Part shown: piece by piece, positions 11,661 through 31,618 of the stretch | How the letters are laid out: each line of letters begins with the position of its first letter | Position numbering within the stretch: position 1 is the first letter of the stretch | IMG/VR virus record: IMGVR_UViG_3300043468_001158 | DNA: 64,000 nucleotides | Strand: one strand, 5' to 3' | From: a virus | Lineage: Duplodnaviria > Caudoviricetes | The notes under the pieces: model-generated | What the model was told of the DNA's origin: nothing | Databases searched by the model: none | Seen by the model: only the letters and a program-made list of their open reading frames with translations | Position numbers and translations under genes: made by a program

Positions 11661-12369
11661 TAGACGAGCAGCTTCAAGTGCGAACTCAACCCCTAAATTA
11701 GCAGGATGGAAATGTAACTATTGCGGACACGTATATGCTCGTGAGAAATCATTCTTGTCTCATGTATGTAAAGGTAAAAGACGATTAGAGACAATGAAGA
11801 CTGTCATCGGTCAATCTGCGTTTGCAAGTTACAATATGTGGATGAAGCTACGAAGACATTCAGTTCAATCGCCCGATACGTTTATGTCCTCTCGCTTCTT
11901 TATCAACTTTGTAAAGTTTGCAGAATTATGTTCAAAAATTGAACTTGATGCAAACCAGTTTCTTACATTCATTGTCAAGAACCATCCTGATATTGGACCT
12001 GCATTATTTTGTAGTGATGCAGTGTATGCGTTATGGCTAAAGAACTATGATGCCCAACTTGACCCATGGGAGCAGTTAGCTCAATCACAGGAATATCTTG
12101 AACGATTAGCTGAAACACTAGAATGTCCATTTACTGAGGTGTTATCTCGCTTAGGATTTCCCACAGTGCTTGAAGCATTTAGAAAGAAAAAGTTATCTCC
12201 TTGGTTTCTATATGTGAGTAACATTGGTAGAGAGTTTCTTAATAATATTGACAAAGATGATTATTCATTATTTGAACAGGTTATCAATCATGCAGTTTGG
12301 GCTGAAAGATTTGCACAAAATCGCGAGTTACTCGCTGAAATGGATAAAGTAATCAATGTCGGAAACTAA
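11599..12369 (+). CDS. zinc-finger protein (C2H2-like) in the replication cluster
   Basis: CNYCGHVYAREKSFLSHVC; real start may be ATG 11626. Confidence 0.7.
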   Translation: MTINMSLQIMDANALKNKAANRRAASSANSTPKLAGWKCNYCGHVYAREKSFLSHVCKGKRRLETMKTVIGQSAFASYNMWMKLRRHSVQSPDTFMSSRFFINFVKFAELCSKIELDANQFLTFIVKNHPDIGPALFCSDAVYALWLKNYDAQLDPWEQLAQSQEYLERLAETLECPFTEVLSRLGFPTVLEAFRKKKLSPWFLYVSNIGREFLNNIDKDDYSLFEQVINHAVWAERFAQNRELLAEMDKVINVGN

Positions 12370-12955
12370 TGTTTCTTATTTTGGTGATGTTGATATTGAC
12401 TTCCCAACAAAGTTCAAACCACTCAACTTATTCCCAAATTGGATACCAGCTAGTATTGTTCAGAATGAAAAACTTAGACCGCATCCTTGTGGCATCTATC
12501 CACAAAACATTCCAATTGACCCGCTAACAAAACTGGCCGCAATTCCATATGAAGAAGCTGATGAATATGGATATTTCAAGTTAGACTTTCTTCATCTTTC
12601 AGTTTACGATAAGTTTGAATCTCGTGAAGAAATCGAAGAACTGCTAACTATTGAACCTGATTGGAACTTGTTATTGATTCCATCAAATTGGTCTAAGCTT
12701 TTTCAAATGAGCAGACATGGTGAGTTATTACAACGATTACGACCTCGCTCGATAGAAGATGTTGCCGATGCTATAGCGTTGATTAGACCCGGGAAAATTG
12801 AACTACTTCCATTGTATCTTAATGATAAAGCCAAAGGTCGAGCGGCTCTTTATAAACAAGATGCATCTGGTTTTTCATTCAAAAAGAGCCATGCTATTGG
12901 ATATGCTCTTGTCATAGTTTTGCAACTACATTTACTTTCGCTCGAACTGTTATAG
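12356..12955 (+). CDS. DnaE-like fragment B, catalytic palm plus fingers remnant
   Basis: GDVDIDF (DnaE PDFDVDF), HPCGIY (HAGGVV), FKLDFL (KFDFL), FKKSHAIGY (FNKSHSAAY). Confidence 0.87.
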   Translation: MSETNVSYFGDVDIDFPTKFKPLNLFPNWIPASIVQNEKLRPHPCGIYPQNIPIDPLTKLAAIPYEEADEYGYFKLDFLHLSVYDKFESREEIEELLTIEPDWNLLLIPSNWSKLFQMSRHGELLQRLRPRSIEDVADAIALIRPGKIELLPLYLNDKAKGRAALYKQDASGFSFKKSHAIGYALVIVLQLHLLSLELL

Positions 12956-25888: not shown

Positions 25889-27361
25889 ATGAAATCTTTA
25901 TCAATTGCTACTTCTTTAGTAGCAGCTTTATCTATTGCCTCCGCCAACCAATGTTATGCTTTAGAACTTTATGTTGATAAAGCAACTCAACAAATCTATG
26001 CTGAACCTGGTCCTAATCGTGAAAAGCTCGGTTCTTTCGAAAAAACTGAAGATGTATCTAAAGATGTTGCATCAATCAAACAAGACCTTGAACTAAAAGC
26101 TAATGAACTAAAAGCTCTTGAAGAACATGTCGTTGCGACTCGTGAAGACAAAGCTAAGAATGATGAAAAGTGGTTCAACAAAATCAATATTAGGGGTTAT
26201 ACGCAAATGCGATATAATCAACCACTCAATAGCAATCATCCAACAGATGATGATCCTAAAAACGGTGGAGAAGCGTCTGAAGTAAAGTCTCCAGGCGATA
26301 GTTCTATTGGAGATAATTCCAGCTTTTCTTTGAGACGTGCGCGTCTTGTCTTTTCTGGAGATATTACTGAATATGTCTCTATGTATCTTCAAACTGATTT
26401 TGCTTCATCAAATGGTGATTTACATTTTGCTCAATTACGTGATGCTTATTTTGACTTGCATTTTGATAAAGCTCATGAATATCGAGTTCGCGCTGGTCAA
26501 TCTAAAGTACCATTTGGTTGGGAAAATCTACAATCATCTCAAAATCGTTTAGCACTTGACCGTGATGATGCATTGAATAGCGCAGTGCCAAGCGAACGTG
26601 ATTTAGGATTATTTGCATATTGGACTCCATCCGATGTTCAAGCTCTTTGGAAAGGGTTGAGTAAAAAAGGTTTGAAAACTTCTGGTGATTATGGTGTGTT
26701 AGGATTTGGTGTTTATAATGGCCAAGGAACAAATAAAGCAGAAGCTAATGACAATCTTCATATGGTATTACATTCAACCTATCCATTCAAGTTAGGTTTC
26801 ATAGGTATGCCAGAGCAAGTTGTTGAGGTTGGTGTTGATGCTATGACTGGTCGTTATAACAAAAAGCCTGAAGAATACATGTATGAAGGCAAAAAGAAAA
26901 CTCCAAAAGCAGATAAAGGTTCTAAAAATGACAATGCTGAAGATAGGGTAGCTGTTCATGCTGTATTATTTCCACAACCATTCGGATTACAAACTGAATG
27001 GACTTGGGGAGCAGGTTCAACGCTAAATCCTGAAACTAACACAATGGGCCGTGAAGGATTGAACGGTGGATATGTTCAAGCAATGTACAAGTTTGATAAA
27101 TTGATTTTGCCTAATGACTCAATGATGCCGTATATCAAATGGCAAACATATGAAGGTGCATGGAAAGCTGCTACTAATGCTCCAAAAGAAAGCGTCAATG
27201 AAATTGAAGCTGGTGTCGAATATCAATTCAATAAAGCGGTTGAACTAACAGTTGCATACGCTCATATGGACAGAACCAACATAGCAAAAGCTACAAGTTC
27301 TGACTTCTTGAAGCAGGCTACTGGAGATATGATAAGAACTCAACTTCAAGTAAATTATTGA
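25889..27361 (+). CDS. phosphate-selective porin O/P family outer-membrane protein
   Basis: Signal peptide (..ANQCYA|LELY), periplasmic coiled coil, IRGYTQMRY, FSLRRARLVFSG, LRDAYFD, GQSKVPFGWENLQSS, C-terminal QVNY aromatic. Confidence 0.82.
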   Translation: MKSLSIATSLVAALSIASANQCYALELYVDKATQQIYAEPGPNREKLGSFEKTEDVSKDVASIKQDLELKANELKALEEHVVATREDKAKNDEKWFNKINIRGYTQMRYNQPLNSNHPTDDDPKNGGEASEVKSPGDSSIGDNSSFSLRRARLVFSGDITEYVSMYLQTDFASSNGDLHFAQLRDAYFDLHFDKAHEYRVRAGQSKVPFGWENLQSSQNRLALDRDDALNSAVPSERDLGLFAYWTPSDVQALWKGLSKKGLKTSGDYGVLGFGVYNGQGTNKAEANDNLHMVLHSTYPFKLGFIGMPEQVVEVGVDAMTGRYNKKPEEYMYEGKKKTPKADKGSKNDNAEDRVAVHAVLFPQPFGLQTEWTWGAGSTLNPETNTMGREGLNGGYVQAMYKFDKLILPNDSMMPYIKWQTYEGAWKAATNAPKESVNEIEAGVEYQFNKAVELTVAYAHMDRTNIAKATSSDFLKQATGDMIRTQLQVNY

Positions 27362-28673: not shown

Positions 28674-29024
28674 ATGTTGATAGTCAATAAAAGTGCATTG
28701 CTGCTTACAGAAAATGCAATAAAGTTATTTGTAAAGATTGATCCTTATGATGCATTTGAGGATTGGTGTTATGATAGTGGCGGAATTTACCAATTACCGT
28801 CACATGGGTCTAATTTTGCAAATAAGTTTGGTGTGAATATAAACGATATTCATCGAATGCATCGGTTTGATATTGCATATCAATTGAAGCGGTTTAGTGA
28901 TTGGTTACTAAGATTTCAAGTTCCGTTTTTAGCATTGTTTGCAAAACAAATTTTGGTAGTTCAATCATTAGCAACTGAGTTCAAATATCGAAATGTAGAT
29001 TTGAACGAAGATTTAGAGTTATAG
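28674..29024 (+). CDS. hypothetical protein
   Basis: GAGGAGG RBS before ATG 28674 (track start 28641 overlaps the -10). Confidence 0.65.
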   Translation: MLIVNKSALLLTENAIKLFVKIDPYDAFEDWCYDSGGIYQLPSHGSNFANKFGVNINDIHRMHRFDIAYQLKRFSDWLLRFQVPFLALFAKQILVVQSLATEFKYRNVDLNEDLEL

Positions 29025-29065
29025 GAATTCACTGACATAATGTCAGTAAAGCATTGATTAGGAAA

Positions 29066-29097
29066 GGTATTGCGGACACGGGTTCAATTCCTGCCTC
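29066..29097 (+). other. degenerate T-arm / tmRNA acceptor-piece relic
   Basis: GGTATTGCG-GAC-ACGGG-TTCAATT-CCTGC-CTC resembles the copy at 29908-29942 but has no acceptor strand or CCA. Confidence 0.55.
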
Positions 29098-29102
29098 TTG
29101 AC

Positions 29103-29159
29103 TATTTTGTACCCAAATCTATAAATAGATTAAGTTCTATTTTTAGATGGTACAAAATA
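29103..29159 (+). promoter_or_regulatory. T4-type late promoter inside a hairpin abutting the endonuclease start
   Basis: TATAAATA 29120-29127 within the inverted repeat TATTTTGTACC (29103-29113) / GGTACAAAATA (29149-29159); ATG at 29161. Confidence 0.7.
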
Positions 29160-29160
29160 A

Positions 29161-29895
29161 ATGAGAAAGCCAAAGAAATATCATTACATATACAAAACAA
29201 CTAATATAATAAAAAATTATTTTTATATAGGGATGCATTCTACTAATAATTTAGAAGATGGATATTTAGGTAGTGGAAAAAGAATAAGATATTCCATAAA
29301 CAAATATGGAAAAGAAAATCACAAAATAGAAATATTAGAATTTCTTCCTTCTCGAGAAGAATTAATAATAAGAGAGAAAGAAATAGTAAATGAAGAATTG
29401 TTAGCCAATTCTCAATGTATTAATTTATGCATTGGGGGTGAAGGTGGAAATGGAACTAGAAATTGGACCGAAGAAACTTATAAAAAAGTAAATAAAACTT
29501 CTTGGGGGAATTTATACTTGAATGGATTTAATCCTGACAATTGGTCAAAATTATCTCCGGAAGAATATGAAGTTAGACGTCAAAAACACTCAAGTGCTGC
29601 ATCCGGAGAAAAAAATGGAATGTTTGGTACAAATGTATTCATTGACCAGAATTATAAAGGAAGTATTCCAAATAGTAACATTTTAAATTCATGGAAATTT
29701 AAAAATGGGTATCAACCTGAAGGTTGGATTTTATTGAGTGAATGGCGAAATAACAAAAAGAATAAAAAAAATCAAGCGTATGGAAAACATTGGTATAATG
29801 ACGGTACTAATAATTATTTTTTATTAGCTTCTGATGAAAAAACAAATTCATTGTTGAAGGGACGAATAGGAAAGCTTTTTAAGAATTCTGTTTGA
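29161..29895 (+). mobile_element. free-standing GIY-YIG (Seg-like) homing endonuclease
   Basis: HYIYKTTN...FYIGMHST...GYLGSG...E..N; visibly more AT-rich than the flanks and has five TTAA sites. Confidence 0.85.
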
Positions 29896-30175
29896 AGCCG
29901 ATATAACGGTATGTGAGACGCGGTGTGGTGACCGCCACCTCCACCAAAAGAATTTTATCAAAATTAGAATTCTTTTTAATGGGGGTGCTTAATCCTTTCG
30001 ATCATGTGCAAAAATATTAGGTTAGGAATCGACACGTGATAGTCGTAAAAAGACAAAAACAAGTATTTGTCAATGACGAAACTTATGCAGTTCGCGCAGT
30101 AGCGTAAGGACTGACGGGGTTTGATTTAGCCCGGCTTATCAACTAACATCCGGTATGGGGAGCTATATGTTCCCC
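29896..30175 (+). ncRNA. ssrA: circularly permuted (two-piece) tmRNA
   Basis: Acceptor piece GAC-GCGGT/ACCGC T-arm, CACCTCC-A-CCA ending at 29946; hairpin spacer; coding piece begins GGGGGTG at 29981 (7-bp stem with G3:U70); tag frame VNDETYAVRAVA* at 30069-30107; terminal hairpin 30157-30175. Confidence 0.85.
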
Positions 30176-30212
30176 TATCGTCATTTTAGAAATGAGAGGA
30201 GTATAATACTAT

Positions 30213-30682: not shown

Positions 30683-31618
30683 ATGCTCAATACTCATTGC
30701 AGTGAAATTGCAACGGCAAAACTTGCAGAAGTTGTTGATAACAATTGCATTGACCGTGAAGTCACTCTGTTCAAGCCGGACATTGTTATCATTGAAGCTC
30801 TTTGGGTTGTACCTGATAAGTTTGATGTCTTATGTCGAATACATCCAAAAGTCCAATGGATTATTCGTCTTCATTCAGATACACCATTTCTTGCAAACGA
30901 AGGTATAGCAATTGAATGGATTCGTCGTTATGCATTCCATCCAAAAGTTCGAATTGCTGCAAATAGCGAACGTATCTACGCTGAGCTTCAGCCTATCATC
31001 GGTAAGAACAATCTTGTCTTGCTTCCGAACTACTATCCGGTTCCTCTGACTATTCCACCTTTCAAAAAGCATTCTCCTAAAGGTGAAATCAACATTGGTT
31101 GCTTTGGAGCTATTAGACCAATGAAGAACCATCTTATTCAAGCTTTATCTGCAATTCGTTTTGCAGAAGAGAAAAAGCTAAAGTTGAACTTTCATATCAA
31201 TGGCAATAGGACTGAAGAACGAGGAGACCCAGTACTCAAGAACATTCGTTCATTGTTCTACAATAGCAAACATGAATTGATTGAGCATCCTTGGAAAGAC
31301 CATGAAGAGTTCCTAAAGAATGTAGAATTGATGGACATTAGCATGCAAGTAAGCTTGAGCGAGACATACAATATTGTAATCGCAGACTCAGTTGTTCATA
31401 ACATTCCAGTTGTCGTATCGCCTGAAATCAAGTGGGTCAATTCATTGTTCCAAGCTTCTGCTACAAGTAGTTATGACATTGTCAAAACACTTCATAGAGC
31501 TTGGTCTGGACGTAAGCTACGACTTCAACAACTGAACTTATGGGGTCTAAACGAATACAATGAATGGGCCAAATGGCAATGGAAGACAATGATACGAAGT
31601 TCCAAAACTGATAGGTAG
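30683..31618 (+). CDS. GT-B (GT4-like) glycosyltransferase; N-terminus probably in another frame from 30522
   Basis: INIGCFGAIRPMKN, QVSLSETYNIVIAD...IPVVVS; frame open back to 30584. Confidence 0.8.
   Translation: MLNTHCSEIATAKLAEVVDNNCIDREVTLFKPDIVIIEALWVVPDKFDVLCRIHPKVQWIIRLHSDTPFLANEGIAIEWIRRYAFHPKVRIAANSERIYAELQPIIGKNNLVLLPNYYPVPLTIPPFKKHSPKGEINIGCFGAIRPMKNHLIQALSAIRFAEEKKLKLNFHINGNRTEERGDPVLKNIRSLFYNSKHELIEHPWKDHEEFLKNVELMDISMQVSLSETYNIVIADSVVHNIPVVVSPEIKWVNSLFQASATSSYDIVKTLHRAWSGRKLRLQQLNLWGLNEYNEWAKWQWKTMIRSSKTDR

Follow-up and report, generated by a model that had tools for sequence, protein, structure and literature searches.

The window, a 64,000-nt stretch of viral DNA (IMG/VR record IMGVR_UViG_3300043468_001158), carries what is almost certainly a genuine circularly permuted tmRNA gene, tmRNA being the RNA that rescues stalled ribosomes. 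A free-standing GIY-YIG homing endonuclease gene lies directly upstream and shares its final 11 nt with the beginning of the tmRNA gene. A truncated second copy of the acceptor piece, with a canonical T-arm, precedes the endonuclease gene (Table 1). Between the two, a long hairpin (approximately 29102–29160) abuts the endonuclease start codon. We searched the whole 64-kb window against 4227 Rfam families and obtained a full-length match to the permuted tmRNA model RF04321 at 29885–30183 on the plus strand (64 bits, gathering score 47, E value of 4.9e-10), in agreement with the original prediction of a permuted tmRNA gene in a phage. The coordinates given in that prediction were all correct, but the extent it proposed (29896–30175) was slightly too short: the gene runs from the AUUCU strand to the terminal hairpin, at about 29885–30183. 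The acceptor piece comes first, followed by a hairpin spacer and the coding piece.

Table 1. Features of the tmRNA locus and of related endonuclease genes. Positions refer to the window unless another contig is named.
Feature	Position	Strand	Sequence or basis
Truncated second acceptor-piece copy	29024–29094	+	canonical T-arm ACGGG-UUCAAUU-CCUGC; sequence, alignment
Free-standing GIY-YIG homing endonuclease, 244 aa	29161–29895	+	PHROG 314, E 4.8e-32; Pfam GIY-YIG
Modular homing endonuclease family	29161–29895; L263:4518–5273; L126:894–1523; L069:3046–3732 (minus strand)		each gene ends <70 nt before a permuted tmRNA gene
Acceptor piece	29885–29946	+	RF04321 alignment, sequence, pair check, consensus fold
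5' outer-helix strand	start of acceptor piece (29885)	+	AUUCU; conserved gene start
Helix-2a 5' strand	29909–29916	+	GTATGTGA (RNA form GUAUGUGA)
T-arm	29920–29935	+	GCGGU-GUGGUG-ACCGC; sequence
Acceptor 3' strand	29936–29942	+	CACCUCC; sequence
Discriminator	29943	+	A; sequence
Encoded CCA	29944–29946	+	sequence
Intervening sequence (spacer), 34 nt	29947–29980	+	hairpin; fold
Coding piece	29981–30183	+	RF04321; end-to-end RF01850 alignment; pair checks
Acceptor 5' strand	29981–29987	+	GGGGGUG; sequence
D-loop analogue	29988–30002	+	CUUAAUCCUUUCGAU, CC at 29994–29995; RF04321, pair checks
Helix-2a 3' strand	30002–30009	+	TCATGTGC (RNA form UCAUGUGC)
Outer-helix strand	30025–30029	+	GGAAU; RF04321, pair checks
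Pre-tag hairpin	30030–30045	+	RNAalifold consensus
Tag frame	30069–30107	+	GUC...UAA = VNDETYAVRAVA*; sequence, position homology with L121, L126 and L263
Stop-codon hairpin (helix 5)	30097–30113	+	CAGU/ACUG; kept with different sequences in relatives
3' domain, H-type pseudoknot and terminal hairpin	30115–30179	+	aligns to RF01850 3' domain; fold
Terminal hairpin	30152–30179	+	fold; kept with different sequences

The structural details of the original prediction withstood pair checking and folding. The acceptor stem forms 7/7 pairs including G3:U70 and is followed by discriminator A, so that the alanine identity elements (G3:U70, A73) and an encoded CCA are all present. The two helix-2a strands pair across the pieces at 8/8 positions, the 34-nt spacer folds into a 12-bp hairpin (-8.1 kcal/mol, z -2.9) and the tag frame reads as proposed from GTC to TAA, with the UAA (30105–30107) placed in the loop of the CAGU/ACUG hairpin. 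The 3' pseudoknot consists of S1 (CGGG/CCCG) and S2 (GAUUUAG/CUAA(C)AUC), and the terminal hairpin is likely to be the 3' end of the RNA or a terminator. No convincing sigma-70 promoter was detected immediately before 29885. Contigs assembled from three metatranscriptome runs and one DNA run span the endonuclease gene, the tmRNA gene and the next gene unbroken; being assemblies, they are mute on transcription, ends and processing.

The betaproteobacterial tmRNA model RF01850 also aligned end to end, over 29840–30183. As this alignment reached 58.4 bits and not the gathering score of 84, the gene is best described as a diverged beta-type permuted tmRNA. The betaproteobacterial two-piece tmRNA (Sharkady and Williams 2004, cited in PMC9004378) has the same gene order as that of the window. 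Also in common are an NDE-type tag start, a 3' pseudoknot of the betaproteobacterial type with a CCUU/ACCAA-like loop, and the terminal hairpin. In contrast to its betaproteobacterial counterpart, the window gene has non-canonical T- and D-loops, is AT-rich and belongs to a type seen in viral or metagenomic DNA only.

Phage tmRNAs had been taken to be one-piece in the original prediction, which does not hold. Buchholz 2022 described a two-piece tmRNA in Melnitz, an OM43 (Methylophilales) phage, and counted 53 such structures in public phage genomes, 50 of them aquatic (PMC9004378), and tmRNAs along with SmpB were reported in huge phages by Al-Shayeb 2020 (PMC7162821). When we scanned IMG/VR for a pattern of this acceptor stem with permuted gene order, at least 120 contigs matched; approximately 107 real tmRNAs, 90 of them unique, were among the matches listed. 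A blastn search of the tmRNA locus against 50,697 GenBank phages gave no match.

What sets the window gene apart is its elbow. The T-loop (29925–29930, plus strand) is GUGGUG, with 6 nt and a G at loop position 3, where a canonical loop has 7 nt and a C at that position (the C56 equivalent). Among the 90 unique viral permuted tmRNAs in the matches listed, the loop has 7 nt in 79 and C at position 3 in 82. As originally suspected, the 6-nt loop is atypical: it is absent from 87 other unique viral permuted tmRNAs. The D-loop analogue keeps the UUCGA element, but in place of the canonical G(G) found 2–3 nt before UCGA the window reads AAUCCUUUCGAU. It thus carries CC where most viral permuted tmRNAs have GG, and C at a position occupied by G in 82/92 unique viral genes.

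We searched for this combination with pattern scans that fixed only one feature, either the T-loop or the D-loop, and 7 further contigs had both (L121, the metagenomic L126, L179, L202, L221, L267 and L263; L numbers denote contigs). Together with the window they form a subtype of four lineages whose tRNA-like cores are 71–86% identical; the sequences from L179 and L202 are the same, and the GUGGUG loop is invariant (8/8 contigs). RF04321 scored 71.8 bits in L121 and 77.4 bits in L126, and the latter reached 57.2 bits with RF01850. The third nucleotide before UCGA and the third of the T-loop are G and C in 78/92 unique genes, and C and G only in the subtype. G19-C56 is the known elbow pair of tRNA-like domains. 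By analogy with that pair, the G/C combination of 78/92 genes and the C/G combination of the subtype indicate that the contact is probably kept as C-G, although the swap represents one evolutionary event. Both loops nevertheless depart from the consensus normally seen by SmpB and the ribosome.

In the scans run, the subtype was seen only in viral or metagenomic DNA. No bacterial genome in a 185,579-species collection contained the pattern in a scan that demanded this exact acceptor stem; a genome-scan hit in Streptomyces (L127) proved to be a chance match in coding sequence, as did four GC-rich hits (L122–L125) to the T-loop pattern with a relaxed acceptor. Separately, one subtype contig (L121:2634–2778, minus strand) also carries a match to the Polynucleobacter-1 RNA (RF01718, 61.7 bits). 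Of the checks originally proposed, the covariance model exceeded its cut-off, and ARAGORN reported no tmRNA in the whole window. ARAGORN found 0/8 subtype contigs compared with 79 of about 107 other viral permuted genes among the matches listed, and its silence is therefore a limit of the detector, not evidence against the gene. Overall, while phage two-piece tmRNAs themselves were already known, this is a phage-only, ARAGORN-blind subtype with a rebuilt elbow.

The subtype RNAs vary in a manner that preserves their structure. An RNAalifold consensus of 7 sequences contained 38 pairs, 14 of them with changes on both sides, and recovered the T-stem, acceptor stem, helix 2a, spacer hairpin and pre-tag hairpin. 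In relatives, compensatory changes are seen in the T-stem (GCGGU/ACCGC in the window). A manual check showed that the stop-codon hairpin CAGU/ACUG of the window has the counterpart GCUG/CAGC in L121 and L126, and pseudoknot stem S2 is CAAGUAU/AUACUUG in L121 and GAUUAUA/UAUAGUC in L128, a relative described below. The terminal hairpin, also checked manually, persists in L121 and L128 despite their differing sequences. All subtype members keep the basal spacer hairpin with unrelated sequences and lengths of 31–95 nt. The spacer appears expandable, with insertions atop the conserved basal hairpin in L179 (63 nt, L179:1760–1822) and L263 (95 nt, L263:5360–5454). Across the four lineages, these compensatory changes demonstrate long-term selection on the RNA.

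A different impression is given by the closest syntenic relative, L128 (IMGVR_UViG_3300013129_001879), which matches the window at 70–85% nucleotide identity through the porin gene, flanking open reading frames, truncated acceptor copy, endonuclease gene and downstream genes. L128 lacks the equivalent of window positions 29871–30085 (215 nt), which hold the acceptor piece, spacer, 5' acceptor strand, D-loop and resume codon. As a result its GIY-YIG frame continues without a shift into the six final codons of the tag (...GRIGLLF-AVRAAA*, L128:3340–3560), and the tmRNA pseudoknot and terminal hairpin are retained behind the endonuclease stop codon. The 25.8-kb contig carries no other permuted tmRNA, and deletion of the core in L128 implies that the tmRNA is dispensable. 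This loss is one argument for the main rival explanation, in which the window gene is a decaying passenger that keeps a tmRNA shape but no longer takes part in trans-translation and persists only as flanking cargo of the homing endonuclease. Relaxed constraint could also account for the Val resume codon and AVA tag end unique to the window, an end that differs from the AVRAAA of L128 by one transition. On the other hand, every helix in the window is intact (7/7, 5/5, 8/8, 8/8 and 4/4 pairs), all subtype-invariant loop residues are present, the tag frame is open with its stop in a hairpin loop, and the compensatory changes described above speak for long-term selection. We therefore regard decay as unlikely. 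The preferred reading, which we hold to be probable, is that the two-piece tmRNA gene is intact, comes from an uncultured freshwater jumbo-type phage and is functional in ribosome rescue there.

The surrounding genome fits such a phage. The best protein matches of the window are to 350-kb jumbo phages, and about 18 sequencing runs of lake or freshwater origin contain this DNA. The window carries NAD salvage and other NAD-related genes (nicotinamide phosphoribosyltransferase, an NMN adenylyltransferase-Nudix protein, NADAR and an NAD-dependent ligase), as well as genes for dCMP deaminase, DHFR, thymidylate synthase, Ro60/TROVE and a long tail/fibre block. Two separate short open reading frames (1552–2103 and 12356–12955) match different pieces of DNA polymerase III alpha (NTPase and finger domains), so this gene may be split or fragmented. 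SmpB was not found among about 39 open reading frames of the window; since the window covers the genome only in part, absence from the phage does not follow. A search with the 127-aa upstream open reading frame returned no relatives. The downstream glycosyltransferase-like gene is shared by 16 loci, L128 among them, that contain tRNA arrays and no tmRNA. Homologues of this gene (window 30683–31618) lie in large tRNA arrays on the jumbo-phage contigs L131, L134, L135 and L137, as many as 17 tRNAs being packed into 9 kb of L135, whereas the window has no tRNA at all.

A complete OprO/P porin gene (25889–27361) offers a hint at the host. Proteins on other metagenomic contigs match the porin at 91% identity, and its nearest named homologues are from Methylococcales (Methylomonas, Methylobacter and Methylosoma, 60–68% identity), which suggests a methanotroph host. 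One-piece tmRNAs of this order have the tags ANDENYSVALAA, in a Methylomonas genome, and ANDDNYALAA, in a standard tmRNA beside a tRNA-Leu. We found no permuted tmRNA in 81 genomes of the order; the sole above-cut-off RF04321 match was the tRNA-Leu next to the standard tmRNA.

The tag, (A)VNDETYAVRAVA with the charged alanine included, follows an A-rich leader and opens with a G-initial resume codon, GUC at 30069, preceded by UA at -5/-4 as in the Rfam consensus; in L121, L126 and L263 the homologous position is occupied by a GCA resume codon. The original prediction called the tag unusual and singled out the Val codon and an internal Arg as atypical. The Val start and the AVA end are indeed unique among 52 + 6 compared tags. 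Of the 52 other viral tags read by ARAGORN, 48 open with Ala, 3 with Gly, 1 with Asp and none with Val, and all (52/52) end in xAA; the tag of the window instead ends in AVA rather than a hydrophobic residue followed by Ala-Ala. Set against these tags, the Val start and AVA end are outliers. The Arg, however, is ordinary, since 10/52 of the other viral tags have Arg at -4 (...RLAA, ...RIAA or ...RMAA). Judged from its sequence, the NDExY adaptor-like motif of the tag (NDETY core) seems to resemble the adaptor-binding portion of gamma- and betaproteobacterial tags, and the tags of the candidate host order (ANDENY.., ANDDNY..). Rescue is probably kept, and targeting to ClpXP may be weakened by AVA in place of xAA.

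Tags within the subtype are very variable, with 12–29 residues and ends of AVA, LAV, FAV, MAA or IAA, in contrast to the invariant tRNA-like core. The other members encode ANDENYTMAMAA, ANDSKFDFYTVDGIFDAIAA, one 25-residue tag ending in AMAA and three 29-residue tags ending in LAV or FAV. Such variability over an invariant core would be expected if the RNA served rescue, or titration of host SmpB, with a non-degradation tag (ending in AVNDETYAVRAVA) that spares host ClpXP or blunts host tmRNA-dependent responses, and a TLD-only tmRNA of phage DS6A that inhibits the host tmRNA is on record (PMC4131195, PMC11915505). Yet the NDExY motif and the Ala/Val-rich hydrophobic C-terminus are still degron-like, and most subtype members have xAA or xAV ends, making a non-degradation tag quite improbable.

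We then considered the arrangement of the endonuclease and the truncated copy. The latter begins with the same GAAUUC and contains a homologous helix strand, without the acceptor 3' strand and without CCA. In L128 it is 86% identical, compared with approximately 76% for the flanks, with a perfect T-stem and a compensatory change in the 5' hairpin (window CUGAC/GUCAG, L128 CUGUA/UACAG); given this conservation and covariation, the copy may still be constrained. The order of remnant, endonuclease and complete GUGGUG-type gene is common to the window, L263 and L126, with equivalent canonical remnants upstream of the endonuclease genes in the latter two, and L128 has the same layout with the core of the complete gene lost. 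The enzymes themselves differ: GIY-YIG in the window, in L128 (82% identical to that of the window) and in L263 (36%), and HNH in L126 and in L069, where the gene is directly upstream of another permuted tmRNA. All five nevertheless share a C-terminal module (...PEGWI..SEW...AYGKHWYNDG.NY...) behind different nuclease heads. Endonuclease genes stand beside the tmRNA in most distinct subtype lineages, and the members without one (L121 and the L179 group) have no remnant.

Duplicated fragments are also left behind by integration, for which tmRNA genes are common sites (PMC4131195, PMC9004378), and the partial duplicate 800 nt upstream could recall a host-derived fragment at a prophage attachment site or, alternatively, an assembly chimera. 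This origin is extremely improbable. The tmRNA gene is complete, the duplicate comprises the 5' part and T-arm rather than the 3' end duplicated by integrases, and the DNA in between is a 0.8-kb endonuclease gene without an integrase. Independent assemblies bridge the locus, which argues against a chimera, and a host source is disfavored by the 0/81 genomes of the candidate host order and by the absence of the pattern from bacterial genomes scanned with the exact acceptor stem.

The arrangement of remnant, endonuclease and complete gene is consistent with intron-less homing into the T-arm, where a replacement resistant to the nuclease is installed. Tentatively, and with somewhat less than even confidence, we propose a homing cassette. 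A GIY-YIG or HNH endonuclease with the shared DNA-binding tail would cleave permuted tmRNA genes of phages in the DNA of their canonical T-arm and insert there along with a replacement acceptor-piece segment whose T-loop resists cutting. The old T-arm would stay upstream as a remnant serving as homology arm, and the change from GG to CC in the D-loop, either co-converted or compensatory, would preserve a working tRNA elbow. Phage tmRNAs that share the 5' end and general layout of the window gene but have a canonical loop do exist (L034, L085 and L116); a search for an intact naive allele matching the remnant T-arm returned only unrelated one-piece and permuted genes. A precedent for mobile elements at this position is found in tmRNA genes whose T-loop is split by group I introns that carry homing endonucleases (Williams group, PMC11915505), where the T-loop region is likewise the residence of a mobile endonuclease element. 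In contrast to these, the window has no intron, its endonuclease is free-standing and of a family with GIY-YIG or HNH rather than LAGLIDADG heads, and a second complete acceptor piece, whose T-loop differs, keeps the gene whole while the old T-arm is a truncated remnant.

Among phage tmRNAs, those of Melnitz and the pelagimyophages (PMC9004378) are the closest parallel. They are likewise permuted, occur in large aquatic myophage-like genomes, are of a type foreign to the tmRNA of the host (here the candidate host) and have a proposed role in keeping translation running during infection. The Melnitz tmRNA differs in being of alphaproteobacterial type, detected by ARAGORN and located behind a glutamine riboswitch, while that of the window is best matched by the beta model, combines GUGGUG with CC, is missed by ARAGORN and lies behind a homing endonuclease. 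For maturation the experimental model is the two-piece tmRNA of Caulobacter crescentus (Keiler, Shapiro and Williams 2000, as cited in PMC9004378), in which a permuted precursor yields acceptor and coding pieces held by base pairing; it is chromosomal and alphaproteobacterial and has a canonical elbow and the tag AANDNFAEEFAVAA.

By analogy with Caulobacter, the window gene would be expressed as one precursor, perhaps by read-through from the endonuclease gene. RNase P would cut before G29981, the 3' end would be trimmed to the CCA at 29946 and the spacer hairpin would be removed and discarded, leaving two RNAs paired via the acceptor stem and helix 2a. Host AlaRS would charge the RNA. During infection, host SmpB and EF-Tu would deliver it to ribosomes that have stalled on broken mRNAs. 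Translation would then resume at GUC and A-VNDETYAVRAVA would be appended.

The tRNA elbow is normally the most conserved part of a tmRNA. The subtype indicates that it can be rebuilt, with GUGGUG and CC, and yet be maintained by selection in several phage lineages, and it offers a natural test case for the elbow requirements of SmpB, EF-Tu and the ribosome. Phage two-piece tmRNAs are an accepted class with roles that have so far only been proposed, and the Val start and AVA end bear on the question of whether rescue coupled to proteolysis, or rescue by itself, suits a phage. Surveys of phage tmRNAs that are based on ARAGORN (for example PMC7162821 and PMC9004378) would systematically miss the subtype. 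Finally, the recurrence of remnant, endonuclease and complete gene side by side suggests intron-less targeting of tmRNA genes by homing endonucleases, which would link the conflict with selfish elements to the evolution of RNA structure. If the homing cassette is true, a selfish nuclease drove the remodelling of a conserved tertiary contact within a stable RNA.
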